Shown here: positions 37,971-46,170 of the stretch, piece by piece
Numbering within the stretch: the stretch's first letter is position 1
How the letters are laid out: the number at the start of each line of letters is the position of its first letter
Source: Candidatus Poribacteria bacterium
Lineage (GTDB): Bacteria; Poribacteria; WGA-4E; PCPOR2b
Direction of reading: 5' to 3'
Length of the DNA: 64,000 bases
Assembly (NCBI GenBank): GCA_965218095.1
Contig: OZ244587.1
Location: 1,632,001 to 1,696,000, forward strand
Position numbers and translations under genes: made by a program
Notes under the pieces: generated by a model
What the model was told of the DNA's origin: nothing
Database searches by the model: none
Seen by the model: the letters and a program-made list of their open reading frames with translations, nothing else

Positions 37971-40001
37971 TCATTTCCACTCACGTGCGTCTAGCCCCTC
38001 ACCTATGGTCGGCAGGCATGACATCCGCAATCTAGCACAACCTAGTGGAATCATTCTAATCGTTTCTTCGGGCGCGTCCGACTTGATTGGACTTGGCCGA
38101 AGTTCCTCAACGGTCTCGTTCTCCAGATTCCAGTTGGGAATGCGCTTTGCCTTCACCTTGATCTCCACGGGCGCGCCCTCGACCGTCCACGGTTGAACTG
38201 CCAACCTATTTTTCTCCTCTACCGTCAGGGAGGAGGCTGGTTTATCGCAGTCTATCACCAGGCCGTAGTTCCATGGGCTTTTGGGTAGCACCGCCCACTC
38301 AGGCCAACCCGCCGTACCCCCGCACCGGCTCCATTCTTCCTCAATCCGAATCGAGTAGCTCAACGGCCCCCGGTCCACTGTCACACTACCGTTGCGCGGC
38401 CAATCTGTCAAAGCAAGCTCCATCGGCATCACGATGTCTACCCTATCGCCGTCAATCCACTCCCGCTCGATCCGAAGGTATGTTTGAGGCCCTGCTTCCA
38501 CATCCAACCTTTTACCGTTTAGGGAAACACACAAACCCTTGCACCACTTCGGCACGCGCAGATAAAGCGGAAACTCTACTGACTGAGAAGTCGCGACCTC
38601 CATATGCACCGTATCTCTGAAGGGATAATGGGTCTCCGCATGAATCGTGACCTCTCTCCCCTCCCGGCCGACCTTTGCAGTTACCTCTGAAGCCGCATAC
38701 ATCCAGGCAGCCAAACCGCCATCGGCCGTTCCCTGCCACAGGTTCTCCACGTACCAGGGCCAACCCATCGCCACATTGTGCTGACAGCAACGGTAGAGAT
38801 AAGGGGAATAGGAGATCATGCATGCTTTATTGGCATACTCATGGTTGCCTGAAGCATCGAGTTGCGGCTGATTAGATGCTGTAAGGTAATGCAGCCCTTT
38901 GAGGTCGGGCGTCTGGGAAGCGGGGAAATGGTTTAGAGTGATGTCTTCACAGCGGTCTGCGTACTTTGGATGGCCCGTGATTCGTCCCAGGATGTAGAAA
39001 CTCTTGTTGAACTCAATCATGGCACAGGTCTCGCAACCCTGTCTTGGATCAGTATACGTGGAACGAAGGACCTCGTCTGCCCCGAAGATGCCCCTGGGCT
39101 GCTGACCCCAGGTGCCCATATGCTGATTGTACCAGTATTCTGAGGCAGCCAGATGCCATGATGCTTTCGATTGGGGGTAGTAACTGCCCGGATAGCGGAA
39201 GCGATGGGTGAAATCCACCACATGGTGGGCCAACCATTCGTCCGTTCTGTAGCGTCTCATTGTGTCGTTATCACCAGCGTTTAACATCCCCTCACGTCCA
39301 GGCCATTGATCGGTTGTGTGCGGAAAGTGTTTGAAAAAGCGCGTCGCAAGCTCCAGCAGCCACAACTCCCCTGTTTGGTTGTAAAGCCAGTGGAGGTGAG
39401 GGATCATCTCGCAAGGACGGCGCTTGTCGACAATCGGCTCATCAGGGATGAACACCTCATCGGGTATATCACGGCAGTACTGGAAAAAGTGGGTCATAAA
39501 TGGGATAACGCGGGCGTCCCCAGTATATTCGTAATGGTGGATGATCGGGTCGAGCATAACGGCGTGGGCCCAGAGGCCCGTAAACTTCTCACCGAATTCC
39601 CCTTCAACAGGTGCGAGGTTGCCGGGACCGAAATAACCGTTCCCCTCCTGGCTGGCAAAGGCAGCCTCGATCCATCTTTGGGATTCCTCCAATAAATTTT
39701 TATCTCCCCTCAGTACTACGAGGTCGTGGAAGCCCCGCAACCAGTACGGCGCCTCCTCTGCCCCACTGACCTCCTCACCCCCTAGCCAACCGTTGTTGGG
39801 TTTAAGGAAGTCGCTCAACTCGTCCAGGTGGCCCACCATCCCATCGGCCATCAGCTCAAGCTGAACTTTAAGCCACCCACCCGGGCGTATGCACCCAAGC
39901 GGGAGTTTGACAAGTGGATTTGGAAGAAGGGGAGGTCGATTTGTCGTATAGAAGGAATTTGATTTACTTACATCGGGCTTCTCTACAACGGTTACCAGCA
40001 T
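37971..40001 (-). CDS. Glycoside hydrolase family 127 (beta-L-arabinofuranosidase-like)
   Basis: GWL..QL..M.DG..GHL, CETC, YRCCQHN, ETHYPF, LRVPKW, RGPL. Confidence 0.9.
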   Translation of the reverse strand: MLVTVVEKPDVSKSNSFYTTNRPPLLPNPLVKLPLGCIRPGGWLKVQLELMADGMVGHLDELSDFLKPNNGWLGGEEVSGAEEAPYWLRGFHDLVVLRGDKNLLEESQRWIEAAFASQEGNGYFGPGNLAPVEGEFGEKFTGLWAHAVMLDPIIHHYEYTGDARVIPFMTHFFQYCRDIPDEVFIPDEPIVDKRRPCEMIPHLHWLYNQTGELWLLELATRFFKHFPHTTDQWPGREGMLNAGDNDTMRRYRTDEWLAHHVVDFTHRFRYPGSYYPQSKASWHLAASEYWYNQHMGTWGQQPRGIFGADEVLRSTYTDPRQGCETCAMIEFNKSFYILGRITGHPKYADRCEDITLNHFPASQTPDLKGLHYLTASNQPQLDASGNHEYANKACMISYSPYLYRCCQHNVAMGWPWYVENLWQGTADGGLAAWMYAASEVTAKVGREGREVTIHAETHYPFRDTVHMEVATSQSVEFPLYLRVPKWCKGLCVSLNGKRLDVEAGPQTYLRIEREWIDGDRVDIVMPMELALTDWPRNGSVTVDRGPLSYSIRIEEEWSRCGGTAGWPEWAVLPKSPWNYGLVIDCDKPASSLTVEEKNRLAVQPWTVEGAPVEIKVKAKRIPNWNLENETVEELRPSPIKSDAPEETIRMIPLGCARLRMSCLPTIGEGLDAREWK

Positions 40002-40586
40002 TTTGGTTCCCTCCTATTTGGATTGAACTGAATTAACAGATTTGCTGCCTAATCAGGAGTGGGAGATTGTTTTTGATATCGTGACATGGCCATCTTCAGA
40101 CGGATACACAACTCGGTATCTTCATCACTTTCTGCCATCAGCCGCTGTGCTTCCGCCCAAACCGCTTGTGGGAGAGATATGTGCAGCCGCCACTCCAGCT
40201 CAATAGATGCCTTTTTCAAAAACGCTACGGCTTCTCTTTTGTCATCTGCCAGCATCAGTAAATTCTCTTTTATTCATGTGTGCTTCTGCCCTTGTGATCA
40301 GACGATTTGTTTCGTCTTTCATATTATCATCCCGCTACGACTTCTACGCTTTAGCAATCCGGCTTCCTGAGTGTAAATGTACATGAGTGCTATCTGCTTA
40401 CTTCTTATGCCTCATTGCAACCGTTGAGGGCTCATTGGCGAAAATCAACGGGTTAATTTGTGTGAGCAACTCGTCTCGTTCAATAAAACATCAGGATGTT
40501 GAGGAATAACACTTTGTGAATCATGAGGATCTCTCCTTTTTGACAGCCACTCTTGACGCCCCCCTCTATGTCTCCCCCCAACTTTG

Positions 40587-40818
40587 GACTTACTATTACC
40601 CATAAGTCTGCAAACCCTTGTTGTGGTATAGGGATTCTGCCCGCTGATGAATCAGCGAGCTACACAGCTGCGTCCGATGAAGAAACCGATAAACGAAGTT
40701 TATTAGTTTCTCCTGAATCGAGTTTAGAAGATCGCTCGAAAGCCCGATGAATCGGGCTTCTTTTTCTGTAACTCGGCGACTTCATCGCCGAGCGAAAAGA
40801 TGTGGGTAATAGTAAGCC
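40587..40818. mobile_element. Structured ~230-bp MITE, copy 1
   Basis: TIR CTTACTATTACCCA/TGGGTAATAGTAAG; internal hairpins; near-identical to 44704-44930. Confidence 0.85.
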
Positions 40819-40992
40819 TTATCAGGGGGAGAGGCAGAGATGCCTCGCTACAGAAACCCGGGCCGATCATACCACAGCATCATTTATCCAAATGAATCGC
40901 CCCGCGCTAGATGAATCAAGCGCCTCAAGTGAGGCGTTAGGACATCAGGGCATTCTATTGGCACTGCACGTAGCGAATATTTGAAAATTATA

Positions 40993-43900
40993 TTACTTCA
41001 AAATGACCATCCGCCTCATCTGACGGAAAGATGGCGTAGACAATTGGTAGAAATAGAGTCCACTTGAGACCCGCTCTCCCGTTTCAGAGCGTCCATCCCA
41101 ATACGCGGCTCGGCTCCGATTCGTGTAATAGCCAGCTATCTGATGACCTAAATCCAACCGACGCACCAACGCGCCCTTTGTGTCATAAATCGTGATCTGC
41201 ACATCGGCATCGTTGGCGAGATGATACGGCATCCATGTCTCCGGGTTGAATGGATTCGGGTAGTTTGGCAACAGGGCTATCTCTGTTGGTGTCAGGGATG
41301 CCAAGAGCTGTTCAAGCACCACAATCCCCCTCACCATCGTGGCATCCTTAACCTCAAGCGACCTCGCGTCGGTCAGCCACTGTTGAACGTCTGCCGCCGT
41401 GAGCATCTCAAATGCTTGTGGATGCGCTGAAGGCGCGGATGCCGCATTCCCAAACGCGCCCGCAACCAACACCAGATCTAGGATATTCACGCCACCGTCA
41501 CTATTCACATCCCCCGCAATCGGTGGCGGCTCAGTGTCGGAGACGACCTTAAAGGTCACCGTTTGCTCAAATCCAGCGGCAGACACAGAGACGGTGTTCG
41601 TTCCCGGGTTCGGACCCAGCGTGAGCGTACTCTCTGCTCTGCCGTTTTCATCGGTCATTGTGCGTGTGGCATTGAGCGTTCCACCGCCCGTGGTCACGGT
41701 AAACGTGACCGGAACCCCCTCAAGCACTGAACCATTCTCATCCTGTACTTCAACGACAAACGGGTTCGCCGGGGCCGCACCGGACACGCCTTTCTGGTTA
41801 TCGCCTGAGATTTTCAAAAGGGCGGGATGCGCTTGGTCGTCAAAGCCTACCATAACCCTTCTGCTTTGGAGGGTTGGAATGTGGGTGTGGATGGATGTGT
41901 AGCTCAGGAGGTTTCCCGTCACATCAACCGTGTCTCCACCCCCCAATCCCGTGTTTGCCACCAGGGGCGAGATGTCCGATATCGAGTTGTCCGAAAGCTC
42001 CAGCCATGTCAGATTGGTTAATCCCGACACAGGCGAGATGTCCGATATCGAGTTCCCGCCAAGCCCCAGCCATGTCAGATTGGTTAATCCCGACACAGGC
42101 AAGATGTCCGATATCGAGTTCCCGCCAAGCCCCAGCCATGTCAGATTGGTTAATCCCGACACAGGCGAGATGTCCGATATCGAGTTCCTGTCAAGAAACA
42201 GCCGTGTCAGATTGGTTAATCCCGACACAGGCGAGATGTCCGATATCGGGTTGCCCCAAAGATACAGCTCTGTCAGATTGGTTAATCCCGACACAGGCGA
42301 GATATCCGATACTGAGTTGTTGTGAAGATTTAGATCTGTCAAATTGGTTAATCCTGCCACTGCTGAGATGTTCGAGATGTTGTTGTCCCCAAGAAACAGT
42401 CCTGTCAAGCTGGTTAAGCCGGACATCGTCGAGATGTCCGAGATGTTACTGCCCCCAAGAGACAGCGACCTTAGTTTGGTTAAACCCGTTAAAGGCGAGA
42501 AATCCGATACCGAGTTACTGTTAATCGAACGATTCTCTGCCTCCACATACTCCGCACTAAGATCCAGTGTTCTCAGGTTGGTTGCACCTTCAAGCCCGGT
42601 CAAATCGCTTATGTTGGCGTTTCTTGCGTCAAGGCGGGTCAAATTTTCTAGGTGCCCTCGGAAAATGGGAGTACTTGGTGGCAGCCCGATCGCTTCTGCA
42701 ATCGCAGCGCGGAGGTTGGGGTCGGGGATGTCAATCTCAGCCACTGCCTCAAGACGAACCCCCATTAACCCAGACATATCCCACAGTTCGACCGTGCCAG
42801 CCACCGTCCCGGAGGCAAGGGTTGTATCATCGCTTGAAAATGCCACAGAAAGTACATGATCCCCATGCCCGAGAGTGACGAAATTTACTCGCGTCGTTAT
42901 GTCCCACAGCTTGACCGTCCTGTCCCACGACCCGGTAGCGAGGGTACTCCCATCGCGCGAAAATGCCACAGAAGTGACCCCACCCGTATGCTCTTCAAAA
43001 GTGCCGATATTTTGCTGTGTCTCAACATCCCACAGCTTGACCGTCCTATCCCACGACCCGGTAGCGAGGAGGGTCGCATCAACAGGCGAAAATGCCACAG
43101 AAGTGACCCTACTCGTGTAATCCTCAAAAGTGCCGATATCTCGGTGCGTCGCCACGTCCCACAGCTTGACCGTCCCATCCCGCGACCCGGTAGCGAGAAT
43201 TGCCCCATCGGGCGAAAACGACACAGAAGTGACCTCATCCGTATGTCTAAAAGTGGCGATATCTCGTTCTGTCTCTACGTCCCACAGCTTAACCGTCCCA
43301 TCCCATGAGCCGGCAGCGAGGGTCCTCTTATCGGACGAAAACGTCATAGCAGATGTATATGTATGCACCTTAAGGGTCGCGATATCTTGTTGCGATACTA
43401 CGTCCCACAGTTTGACTGTCCCATCCCATGAGCCGGTTGCGAGAGTCACGCCATCGGACAAAAATGCCACAGAATGGACTCCAGATGTATGCTCATCAAA
43501 GGTGGCGATATGGTGTGGCGAAATTTCCACAAGCCAAAAGGAGGCATAGCCTGCATTCCCATCCGTATCAACAACCTTGACATGAACGGTATGTACCATA
43601 GAATCAGACAGATTCGTAAAGCCCTCCGCTGTAAAAGCACCGTTATAGTCGAATTTAATGGGGGCATCTTTTTCTCCCGCTAATCCACGACACGCTATCA
43701 GTCCATCAGAACCAGACAGGAGCACTTGATGGAGCCCCTCTGAATCGCTGACTTTGAGTTGAACCGGGACGCTCTGCGAGCCTGCCGGATAAGTACGCGG
43801 CGAGGTAAGTTCAATGGTGGGTCGCTCCCCCTCTTCAGTTGGGGTATTGAGATTGAAGTAGGGATGCACGGACAAATATTCGGCATGGCACGCGGATAAC

Positions 43901-44625
43901 TGATCCCGTCCTGGACCACCATACGACATGATGTACGCACCATCGTGAAAATCGTGATTCAGTCCGAAGGCGTGTCCCAGTTCATGTGCTGCTGTTCCGA
44001 AGCTAAATTCGCCAGGAACTAACGCATCTCCACCATTTTTCCCCCATCTGCCTCCGACACCTCCGACGTTACGTCCATCACCAAGACCAATTAGATCTGT
44101 GCTATTATCAATGACGATTAGGTAAACGTTTGCCTCAAGATTAAACGCTAGGTTTATCTCGTCGAATACAGCACCAGCGGTGTTATCAAGGTAGTGGCTA
44201 TCGGGGTGTCGCCCGTCCACGTGATGCACCATCGGCTCGCCTTGGGGGTCGGTTTCGATGCGGAAGGGGACTGCCCCGTAACCGTGTGCACCCATCTGCT
44301 CGGCAAAGAAGGTCTGGACCTTGAGAATCTCCTCCTTCATCCGCTGAACGACGTCGGCGCGATACGGGCGGTCATTGGGTAAGAGGTAGATTATCCGTAC
44401 CGTGCGTGGTTCACCGACGTTCAAATTCGCTGTAAAGGATTGGGCGTAGCGACGATTGGGATATTGGTCCGAATACCGTTTGCTCCATTGATTATCAATA
44501 ACGCCGCAAAAAAGTGTCCCGTTTCCGGCAGATAGCTGGGAGGCGGCAATCGCTAGGTTGAGTGTGCCGCCGGTGAGATAGATTATTAGAGAGTATAAGG
44601 TGAAACGAAAAAATTGTGTTTTCAT
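40993..44625 (-). CDS. Secreted multidomain protein: zinc metallopeptidase + WD40 + internalin-type LRR + Big_1 + dockerin + FlgD/T9SS-like C-terminal domain
   Basis: Signal peptide; HELGHAFGLNH; WD repeats; 22-aa LRRs ISDISPVSGLTNLTxLxL; GDVNSDGGVNILDLV; LLPNYPNPFNPETW. Confidence 0.92.
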   Translation of the reverse strand: MKTQFFRFTLYSLIIYLTGGTLNLAIAASQLSAGNGTLFCGVIDNQWSKRYSDQYPNRRYAQSFTANLNVGEPRTVRIIYLLPNDRPYRADVVQRMKEEILKVQTFFAEQMGAHGYGAVPFRIETDPQGEPMVHHVDGRHPDSHYLDNTAGAVFDEINLAFNLEANVYLIVIDNSTDLIGLGDGRNVGGVGGRWGKNGGDALVPGEFSFGTAAHELGHAFGLNHDFHDGAYIMSYGGPGRDQLSACHAEYLSVHPYFNLNTPTEEGERPTIELTSPRTYPAGSQSVPVQLKVSDSEGLHQVLLSGSDGLIACRGLAGEKDAPIKFDYNGAFTAEGFTNLSDSMVHTVHVKVVDTDGNAGYASFWLVEISPHHIATFDEHTSGVHSVAFLSDGVTLATGSWDGTVKLWDVVSQQDIATLKVHTYTSAMTFSSDKRTLAAGSWDGTVKLWDVETERDIATFRHTDEVTSVSFSPDGAILATGSRDGTVKLWDVATHRDIGTFEDYTSRVTSVAFSPVDATLLATGSWDRTVKLWDVETQQNIGTFEEHTGGVTSVAFSRDGSTLATGSWDRTVKLWDITTRVNFVTLGHGDHVLSVAFSSDDTTLASGTVAGTVELWDMSGLMGVRLEAVAEIDIPDPNLRAAIAEAIGLPPSTPIFRGHLENLTRLDARNANISDLTGLEGATNLRTLDLSAEYVEAENRSINSNSVSDFSPLTGLTKLRSLSLGGSNISDISTMSGLTSLTGLFLGDNNISNISAVAGLTNLTDLNLHNNSVSDISPVSGLTNLTELYLWGNPISDISPVSGLTNLTRLFLDRNSISDISPVSGLTNLTWLGLGGNSISDILPVSGLTNLTWLGLGGNSISDISPVSGLTNLTWLELSDNSISDISPLVANTGLGGGDTVDVTGNLLSYTSIHTHIPTLQSRRVMVGFDDQAHPALLKISGDNQKGVSGAAPANPFVVEVQDENGSVLEGVPVTFTVTTGGGTLNATRTMTDENGRAESTLTLGPNPGTNTVSVSAAGFEQTVTFKVVSDTEPPPIAGDVNSDGGVNILDLVLVAGAFGNAASAPSAHPQAFEMLTAADVQQWLTDARSLEVKDATMVRGIVVLEQLLASLTPTEIALLPNYPNPFNPETWMPYHLANDADVQITIYDTKGALVRRLDLGHQIAGYYTNRSRAAYWDGRSETGERVSSGLYFYQLSTPSFRQMRRMVILK
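41960..42325 (-). repeat. 66-bp near-identical tandem repeats (LRR coding)
   Basis: GTCAGATTGGTTAATCCCGACACAGGCGAGATGTCCGATATCG recurring every 66 bp. Confidence 0.85.
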
Positions 44626-44703
44626 CGCTATGTTTATTTCCTTTGAGGTTGGAAATGTGTGAGAGGCATTTGTGCCTCGATTGTCAGGACACCCCCCTTA
44701 TCA

Positions 44704-44930
44704 GGCTTACTATTACCCATAAGTCTGCAAACCCTTGTGGTATAGGGATTCTGCCCGCCGATGAATCAGCGGGCTACACGGCTGCGTCCGATGAAGAAAC
44801 CGATAAACGAAGTTTATTAGTTTCTCCTGAATTGAACTGAGAAGATCGCTCGAAAGCCCGATGAATCGGGCTTCTTTTTCTGTAACTCGGCGACTTCATC
44901 GCCGAGCGAAAAGATGTGGGTAATAGATAG
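44704..44930. mobile_element. Structured ~230-bp MITE, copy 2 (direct orientation to copy 1)
   Basis: GGCTTACTATTACCCA ... TGGGTAATAG; same internal sequence with few substitutions and a 3-bp indel. Confidence 0.85.
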
Positions 44931-44973
44931 CAACTTTGAGGGGACATATAGAGGGAGACTTTTCAAAGTTAAA

Positions 44974-46170
44974 TTACTCGGGCGACCAGTGCGCCGCGTA
45001 ATGGAGGATATTTTCCATCAGTTTCTCATTCGCCTTGACAGTCTCCTGCCCATCATTGCGCAAGCTGGTGAAAATGTACAAACCCCTGCTGTGTTTCCGC
45101 ACGCCAACAACGAGATGTTTGCCATCGTTGGTGGTTGCAAAAACTTCGAAATCTTGATCCCAATCTGTCCAGGCATCATCAATATAGATTTCCCCCGGCT
45201 CAATCAGATGGGGCGCCGCAAACAGCTTCTCCCTCTGGTCAGTAATCTTGAAATCCTGAGTTGGTGGACGTTCGACGCCAGTCAAACTTCCTACCAGCCA
45301 GCCGATTTCACAGGGACGTTTCTGATCACTATCTTGACCGCTGACGATGACAATCCCGCCATTTGCCACAAACGTTTTGATTTTTTCCTCTATTTCTTTG
45401 TTGAGCAAGTAACCGCCATAAGCAATCTCTCCATGACCGGGCCACAAAATGTCTGCTTCGTCTAAGTCGGAGAGCGAACGATCTTGGGTTGACTCATAAG
45501 CCAGGGGCTTATCATCTGCCCTTTTAACCTTTCGTATCGCGTTATATTCATAGCCAACTGTGTTTGTCTCCACGGGAACCTGGCTGTACATAGGCTTCGT
45601 GCTGTTACCCGTCAAGACCAGCACCTTCACCGCGTCTTTGGGAGCGGCGGGCCACTTTTCACCTGCGAGGATGGCTCGGACAATCTTCTGAAATTCCATT
45701 GTTGAACCATCAAATGTTCGCAACAAATATGGGTCCGTGTGGGGAAACGACCACCACCCGTCGGGGAAATCTTCACCCGGTCCATAGGTTTGAAACCACA
45801 TGCCATCTATATATGAGAGACTTTGAATTCCCCATTGGTTCCGTTGATAAAACACGATGATCGGCATGCCGACTTTAAGCAGTTTAACCATTTGGGGGGG
45901 AGAGCTTCCACGGCGATACTGTCCGGTGGCGAAGTTCATTTTAATCTCATCTACATTGCTTACCCCTTTGGCGTCCTCTTCGACTGCAACAATGCTTCTC
46001 AACCGTTTAGCATTTACGCTTCTAATTTTCCCAAAGACGATGTTGGTGCAGGCATCTGAAACTTCATGGATTGTATATTCTCGCTCAATAAACCCCCTTG
46101 CTTGTGAGGAAAACAGCAAGCCAATGAAAATGAGGCATAAGGTAAGTGAAATTCGATGTTTTTTTAGCAT
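44974..46170 (-). CDS. Secreted hypothetical protein with C-terminal GATase/ThuA-like alpha/beta domain
   Basis: Signal peptide ending SQARG; IKTFVANGGIVIVSG. Confidence 0.7.
   Translation of the reverse strand: MLKKHRISLTLCLIFIGLLFSSQARGFIEREYTIHEVSDACTNIVFGKIRSVNAKRLRSIVAVEEDAKGVSNVDEIKMNFATGQYRRGSSPPQMVKLLKVGMPIIVFYQRNQWGIQSLSYIDGMWFQTYGPGEDFPDGWWSFPHTDPYLLRTFDGSTMEFQKIVRAILAGEKWPAAPKDAVKVLVLTGNSTKPMYSQVPVETNTVGYEYNAIRKVKRADDKPLAYESTQDRSLSDLDEADILWPGHGEIAYGGYLLNKEIEEKIKTFVANGGIVIVSGQDSDQKRPCEIGWLVGSLTGVERPPTQDFKITDQREKLFAAPHLIEPGEIYIDDAWTDWDQDFEVFATTNDGKHLVVGVRKHSRGLYIFTSLRNDGQETVKANEKLMENILHYAAHWSPE

Follow-up and report, generated by a model that had tools for sequence, protein, structure and literature searches.

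In compound transposons of the Tn5 type, the two bracketing IS50 copies are inverted relative to each other, and IS50 duplicates about 9 bp of its target. With IS26, one copy and its adjacent DNA act as a unit, and swapped flanks are the historical signature of this movement. The order A-M-B...B-M-A, in which element M stands at both junctions, is the classical signature of replicon fusion or compound insertion. Here we describe a locus with this order in a 64,000-nucleotide stretch (the window, positions 1632001-1696000) of a Candidatus Poribacteria genome (G000) which is assembled as a single 6.35-Mb contig, OZ244587.1. Two copies of a MITE (miniature inverted-repeat transposable element) enclose one gene encoding a 1210-aa protein with WD40 and leucine-rich repeat (LRR) domains. 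The target duplication has been split to the outer flanks of this block and the donor duplication to its inner flanks, with direct copies of the MITE at both junctions. As read from alignments of these flanks, the relics at the two junctions show that the gene, referred to below as the cargo, left a tandem array and settled in a hairpin at a new chromosomal site.

The locus shares with IS50/Tn5 compound transposons and cointegrates a Tn5-type transposase (encoded by the partner of the MITE), duplications of ~9 bp, two copies around a cargo and one outer duplication. It differs in having directly oriented, non-autonomous 228-bp derivatives as its bracketing copies, a single period of a chromosomal array as its cargo and a hairpin loop as its target, and in being known from one static copy. 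A previous sequence-only reading of the window had likened the block to IS26 translocatable units. This analogy, which extends to pseudo-compound transposons, holds for topology, a unit between two direct copies, but not for element family or duplication length: the element is Tn5-like (IS50/Tn5 group of IS4), and its duplications measure 9-11 bp (the outer one 9-10) compared with 8 bp for IS26/IS6, whose units leave no duplication when they insert beside a resident copy. There is also no evidence here of the transposase-dependent targeted insertion beside a resident copy seen with IS26.

Pairs of MITEs in Acinetobacter bracket class 1 integrons, or a 76-kb region in the case of MITE-297, in the manner of a composite transposon (PMC6382973). 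In the passages cited, the likeness is that two non-autonomous copies flank a cargo; unlike our case, these are plasmid-borne resistance regions with MITEs of another element family, and a permuted array unit with retained inner donor duplications is not among the features those passages describe. Targeting of repetitive extragenic palindromic (REP) sequences is reported for five insertion sequence (IS) families including IS4, with all copies of ISRm22 located in REPs (PMC1525189). The element described here resembles IS1397, ISKpn1, IS621 and ISRm22 in inserting into repeated extragenic palindromes, and differs from them in its Tn5-specific domains and its C-run/G-run hairpin loops, among which the TTATCA type is preferred.

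The MITE-gene-MITE block and its swapped flanks

The two MITE copies lie in direct orientation, are 228 and 225 bp long and 95-96% identical, and differ by eight substitutions, one TA/AT swap at the right end and one 3-bp indel. The whole block measures 4.35 kb, and the cargo gene is the sole long open reading frame (ORF) between the copies, which agrees with the sequence-only reading that exactly one gene is enclosed. The swapped flanking words of that reading were verified at all of their coordinates. The outer word, CAACTTTG, occurs left of copy 1 (40579-40586) and right of copy 2 (44931-44938); in its extended form, CAACTTTGGA before copy 1 and CAACTTTGA after copy 2, nine of ten bases agree, with one G indel. 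The inner word, CCTTATCAGG, lies right of copy 1 (40817-40826) and is matched at all ten positions left of copy 2 (44696-44705). Neither focal copy carries its own target-site duplication, and the flanks of any single copy belong to two different hairpin types. At the outermost ends of the block there is a single duplication, of the usual length for the element family. The possibility that the flanking words are constant parts of the element was excluded, as the other 12 pairs of terminal inverted repeats (TIRs) in the genome are flanked differently. The features are, in window positions:

40562..40578, no strand: REP-like palindrome (target hairpin A), left arm, which pairs with 44940-44955 in the joined flanks
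40579..40588, no strand: left copy of the outer duplication, 9/10 identical to 44931-44939 and spanning the loop of hairpin A
40589..40816, plus strand: MITE copy 1 (228 bp), with perfect 14-nt TIRs and three internal hairpins
40817..40826, no strand: first copy of the inner duplication, identical to 44696-44705
40827..40992, minus strand: array spacer, 3' half, following the cargo stop; the spacer alignment continues across the junction
40993..44625, minus strand: cargo gene, 1210 aa, from its ORF and Pfam matches
44626..44695, minus strand: array spacer, 5' half, ahead of the start codon; the same region precedes several paralogs
44696..44705, no strand: second copy of the inner duplication, from flank comparison
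44706..44930, plus strand: MITE copy 2 (225 bp), its right end off at 2 of 14 positions
44931..44939, no strand: right copy of the outer duplication, from flank comparison
44940..44955, no strand: right arm of the REP-like palindrome (hairpin A), ~20 nt past the stop of the neighboring gene (44974..46170, minus strand, 398 aa)

Joining the outer flanks across the block restored a palindrome, as had been claimed, and this palindrome is REP-like. The joined sequence folds at -26.6 kcal/mol (z -5.9) and matches intact palindromes at five other loci of the genome (4586176-4586225, 2496653-2496697, 2063304-2063355, 1140153-1140187 and 3409921-3409953), the best at 90% over 50 nt (E 1e-11). By these comparisons, the loop of a REP-like hairpin holds the whole block, and the outer duplication, at 9 bp, has a size typical of the element family.

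Joining the inner flanks restored a second hairpin, of the C-run/TTATCA/G-run type of the array spacers. Here the joined sequence aligned unbroken across the junction with two spacers of a tandem array at genome positions 628901-629054 and 630668-630823 (108/122 and 109/122 identical columns, 89%), over 73 nt upstream of the junction and 50 nt downstream of it. These two spacers separate three consecutive minus-strand paralogs of the cargo gene (626960-628939, 629290-630663 and 631068-634673). The region upstream of the cargo gene also precedes paralogs at 628.9, 630.7, 3927.2 and 5602.2 kb. Because the joined inner flanks align with uninterrupted paralog spacers, the alignments identify the cargo interior as exactly one tandem-array period, a gene plus its spacer, opened at the spacer hairpin. 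The circular permutation that the sequence-only reading had recognized in the interior is thus one array unit, held inside a REP-like hairpin.

The cargo gene belongs to a WD40/LRR family that forms tandem arrays in this genome and its relatives, and in the relatives the family is greatly expanded and often tandem. The 1210-aa protein matched the Pfam WD40 propeller (2.8e-61), LRR_4 (1e-38) and Big_1 (1.4e-11) families and, below the curated cut-offs, a zinc-metallopeptidase motif, a dockerin-like region and a FlgD_ig/Por_Secre_tail-like C-terminus. Since the closest paralog in the genome is 71% identical over residues 621-1210, with a nucleotide block of ~1.3 kb at 89-93% identity, no recent donor remains. 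The GC content of the interior, 52.7%, is the same as that of the array paralogs and falls at the 84.5th percentile of genome windows, and the interior therefore carries no foreign compositional signal. The setting in a symbiont fits, as the related records are metagenome-assembled genomes (MAGs) of Candidatus Poribacteria. The block is therefore a natural record of one member of an expanded secreted WD40/LRR family leaving its array in a sponge symbiont, in which the donor-site and target-site duplications can both still be read.

Two further observations concern the cargo gene and its family. Window positions 41900-42510 contain seven tandem 66-nt units, encoding 22-aa LRR repeats, with neighboring units up to 93% identical; these point to a recent repeat expansion or homogenization within the gene. 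Close homologs of the 1210-aa protein (up to 57% identity) were found in Latescibacterota, Gemmatimonadota and Poribacteria MAGs, a spread in keeping with the family being exchanged between co-resident symbionts.

The MITE family and its Tn5-like partner

Neither focal MITE copy contains an ORF of at least 80 aa. The interior of the element (40639-40800 and 44753-44914) forms three hairpins around a GATGAA/TTCATC motif, and this core is conserved in more distant copies of the family. One hairpin is followed by a T-run and is terminator-like on the plus strand, once per copy (40740-40759 in copy 1); a promoter and terminator scan gave counts no higher than in shuffled sequence. The window's genome holds 41 hits to the element ends. 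Fourteen end pairs of 109-273 bp occur there, alike at their ends but different inside. Exact duplications flank two of these 14 pairs (9 and 10 bp, at genome positions 2804341 and 4749088), and near-exact duplications flank two further copies at 1609.7 and 1620.9 kb. The focal subfamily consists of only three copies, the third of which (4231539-4231763) is closer to copy 2 than to copy 1.

Matches of 100% identity to the 22 nt at the start of the element number 12 in one relative (G003) and nine in another (G009). In these two genomes, ends of 14-22 nt bound elements of 1583 and 1591 bp with ORFs of 460 and 462 aa. The 460-aa ORF matched Tnp_DNA_bind (3.6e-22), Dimer_Tnp_Tn5 (1.2e-16) and DDE_Tnp_1 (3.2e-07), and the 462-aa ORF matched the same set. 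A 1706-bp copy in a third relative, G002, has a truncated ORF of 357 aa with the DNA-binding domain only. We identify the MITE, on the strength of these sequence matches, as a deletion derivative of an IS50/Tn5-like IS of the IS4 family that targets hairpin loops. Its end sequences may resemble the two ends of IS50.

The insertion sites of the full-length copies were consistent with those at the focal locus. Exact duplications were present at 19 of 22 copies (9 bp at five, 10 bp at 12 and 11 bp at two), and nearly all 19 sit in C-run/loop/G-run hairpins, nine of them containing TTATCA or TGATAA. One full-length copy in G003 (L124) has a duplication identical to the inner word CCTTATCAGG. Judged by these sites, the C-run/TTATCA/G-run hairpin is the favorite target type of this IS family. 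Three of the 12 full-length copies in G003 have unmatched flanks which partly match the flanks of other copies, and this suggests rearrangements between copies.

In the window's genome, a search for an autonomous partner found no end pair spaced 0.7-3.5 kb and no match to the Tn5-specific Pfam families PF02281 and PF14706. The sole match to the G003 transposase there is a 35-aa remnant, 69% identical, in a 273-bp element at 1173606-1173878. Because this remnant persists, the element family was once autonomous in this genome. The sequence-only reading had stressed that no transposase is encoded, and this is true of the genome today, while relatives carry intact partners. The 273-bp element itself has perfect ends and keeps a piece of the C-terminus of the Tn5-like transposase, and is a snapshot of the birth of a MITE by internal deletion. 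We rejected 152 DDE_Tnp_1 hits in the genome as candidates for the cognate transposase, since they belong to other IS types with different ends. An integron-cassette reading was also rejected, without a formal test, in view of the inverted ends, the duplications and the transposase-bearing partner. A full-text literature search, which did not extend to supplementary files, returned no paper combining Poribacteria and miniature inverted-repeat elements. A Tn5-like IS family with MITEs aimed at hairpin loops offers a handle on the genome plasticity of these uncultivated bacteria.

Routes to the block

We propose that the block is a compound or cointegrate-type structure built by a non-autonomous element of the IS50/Tn5 family, an explanation to which we give an even chance, taking its three routes (a to c) jointly. 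In the first step a MITE would have inserted into an array spacer, creating the inner duplication. Next, a donor in which one unit was flanked by MITEs would have arisen by unequal crossing-over in the array or, alternatively, by a second hit in the next identical spacer or by way of an excised unit circle or dimer. An independent second hit in the next spacer is plausible because the spacer hairpin is the preferred target of the family. A Tn5-like transposase acting in trans, and since lost, would have joined the outermost MITE ends to the REP loop, through cut-and-paste of MITE-unit-MITE or through cointegrate formation, with the outer duplication made simultaneously. The two MITE copies would afterwards have diverged by ~5%. 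Route a would be compound transposition of MITE-unit-MITE from a donor with a duplicated MITE-bearing spacer, route b the same reaction on a dimeric circle (conservative fusion), and route c a Tn5-type cointegrate from a unit circle. As to precedent, Tn5 cointegrates form in vivo and cointegrate-like structures result from dimeric donors, according to a report that draws partly on unpublished data (PMC2723962).

One transposase-made insertion of the whole block predicts an outer repeat of the size and in the place seen at other insertions, and the outer repeat does have the same size and hairpin-loop position as simple insertions of this family. The proposed donor is plausible, as the gene family occurs in tandem arrays and the GC content of the interior matches that of the array paralogs. 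The class of mechanism (compound transposon, cointegrate or recombination between IS copies) is textbook, and the event is of a known kind of transposon-driven gene shuffling.

Several observations weigh against this explanation. With no cognate transposase in the genome now, it cannot be demonstrated that the key step was feasible at the time of the event. The 11 positions at which the copies differ imply an old event if the copies were born identical, and recombination between two already different MITEs would explain the differences without age. Homologous recombination with a resident MITE predicts every structural feature equally. A second copy of the block, or a MITE-bearing donor array, is absent from the window's genome, and the 21 full-length copies located in G003 and G009 included no conspicuous close pairs. 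None of 76 homologous loci elsewhere (1.15 Mb) had an end pair, with one single-mismatch unpaired hit among them and no element ends at loci L002-L013. 

The 76 loci also bear on two wider expectations of the sequence-only reading. The survey for other MITE-bracketed members of the gene family came up empty, and a general route for shuffling host-interaction genes gained no second example. The MITE-gene-MITE arrangement appears so far unique.

Both flanking words recur in target loops, with 35 occurrences of CCAACTTTGG in the genome and 12 of CCTTATCAGG, and of the 820 pairs that the 41 element ends can form, 13 match at 8-10 nt by the criteria of the script. This recurrence speaks for an explanation without any relocation, in which two independent insertions with decayed duplications came to be flanked by similar words through chance, or in which the assembly is in error. 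Hairpins of C-run, 4-9-nt loop and G-run number 77 in the genome, compared with 13 of the reversed arrangement, and their loops include 11 of the AACTTT/AAAGTT type and seven of the TTATCA type. Because both flanking words recur as target-loop words, they count for less by themselves than their length would imply, and decay of duplications is in keeping with the two of 14 TIR pairs that retain exact ones. However, the agreement extends beyond the words, with intact hairpins and spacers elsewhere aligning to 50-123 nt of the joined flanks, and the two flanks of each copy come from different hairpin types. The question of swapped flanks is decided by this longer context and not by the words. For an assembly error it can be said that, among the metagenome contigs listed (see below), none spans the block or covers the left junction of copy 2. 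Against it, the 11 differences between the copies argue that the repeat was neither collapsed nor duplicated, the genome is a single contig, and the left junction and the right junction of copy 1 are present in contigs of other runs with 0-3 differences. We consider both forms of this explanation very improbable.

The loops that recur among the REP-like palindrome families of the genome are AATGCT, AACTTT, TGACAA, AATTCT and TTATCA, and those with AACTTT have arms of ~20 bp. A second candidate pair of swapped flanks, the left flank of the element at 1173606 and the right flank of that ending at 4231763 (both CCGCAAGCGG), was withdrawn, as CCGCAAGCGG is found 31 times and belongs to the recurrent loop words. 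A 127-bp element (genome 4159361-4159487) has two flanks that are nearly reverse-complementary, and the left one is matched by the right flank of a one-ended fragment at 2802504. An inversion between copies may have left this trace, with recurrent loop words as a confounder.

The sequence-only reading had favored a fourth route, in which a non-replicating circle of one unit plus its spacer MITE recombined into a MITE resident in the REP hairpin. The circle would have been excised by recombination between adjacent tandem paralogs, the resident MITE would have had its own 9-bp duplication, and no transposase would have been needed for this step. Such a circle yields exactly the order A-M-B...B-M-A, arrays of 3.6-kb tandem repeats can shed unit circles, and the transposase is missing from the genome today. 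Two distinct MITEs recombining would also make the 5% difference between the copies natural. In the same direction, unmatched flanks occur at other element ends in the window's genome and at the three full-length copies in G003 described above, and some match the flanks of other copies; these are confounded by the recurrent loop words. Loss of duplications through IS recombination and adjacent deletions is discussed in PMC11708052.

This fourth route requires two independent MITE insertions, and a non-replicating circle would have to be captured by way of just ~228 bp at 91-95% homology, as against the 3.6 kb that it shares with its own array, and the subfamily has only three copies. We polarized the 11 differences between the copies with the third copy and six more distant family members. 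No clear left/right chimera emerged: copy 1 has the derived state at five of the differences and copy 2 at two, the others being ambiguous. The topology of the product thus fits a circle entering a resident MITE, but this mode of arrival is not established, since the other three routes give an identical product. We regard it as possible and rather doubtful.

Related genomes and metagenome contigs

In the 40 nearest genomes, none of which belongs to the same genus, the flanks of the block had no syntenic locus and only the gene family was matched. Exact-word scans of metagenomes, with 22 letters of the left flank and 26 of the right, returned nothing, and so gave neither an empty allele nor one with a solo MITE. 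A solo-MITE allele would in any case read identically as an ancestral state and as the product of a later deletion. Logan contigs were available from six runs of three studies, which contained 47-65% of sampled words, and four of these runs were compared in detail. The contigs break inside the MITE, none of those listed spans the block, and a junction was called bridged by a 31-letter rule.

At 0-6 differences, contigs ran from the left flank 30-33 letters into copy 1, from 34 letters of the right end of copy 1 into the interior in runs X1 and X5 (17 letters in X2), and from 29 letters of the right end of copy 2 into the right flank. Only the left junction (in X2) and the right junction of copy 1 (in X1 and X5) are bridged by the rule, and the left junction of copy 2 is uncovered among the contigs listed. 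None of the 15 joints listed, of 169 in all, was a 4.1-kb skip or a circle joint, in contigs that break inside the MITE, and this speaks neither for nor against alternative alleles.

The four runs differed in contig depth over window positions 39800-45700. In run X2, the flank contigs that run into the MITE have depths of 23 and 22.5, compared with 7.8-8.1 for the interior contigs, three of which show 0-1 differences and the fourth five. In run X5 the flanks are at 9.4 and 10.2 and one interior contig at 9.4, and the gaps in X1 and X3 are smaller than in X2. The depths in X2 could reflect many cells with a MITE at the site but without the gene, and hence a presence/absence polymorphism; contig depth cannot rank the parts of a stretch, and the difference in X2 is a lead only. 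If this polymorphism is real, MITE pairs become testable as recombination-based carriers of host-interaction genes.

A stronger form of this idea is that the block is a living translocatable unit, its gene being gained and lost at the hairpin by transposase-free recombination between MITEs in natural Poribacteria populations. We think this unlikely. If true, dead Tn5-type MITEs in REP-like hairpins would be portable docking sites that shuffle single array units, and such shuffling of host-interaction genes would act around the chromosome and between strains.

The IS load of the window's genome is very high. It includes ~130 copies of a 0.83-kb IS5-like element with ends TAGGTTCTGTTGACATTT, one of which lies in the window near 56.3-57.1 kb (genome match 1688370-1688687). 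A 1.1-kb IS is present in 14 copies, alongside an IS4-like element of 1336 bp that has duplications of 9 bp.

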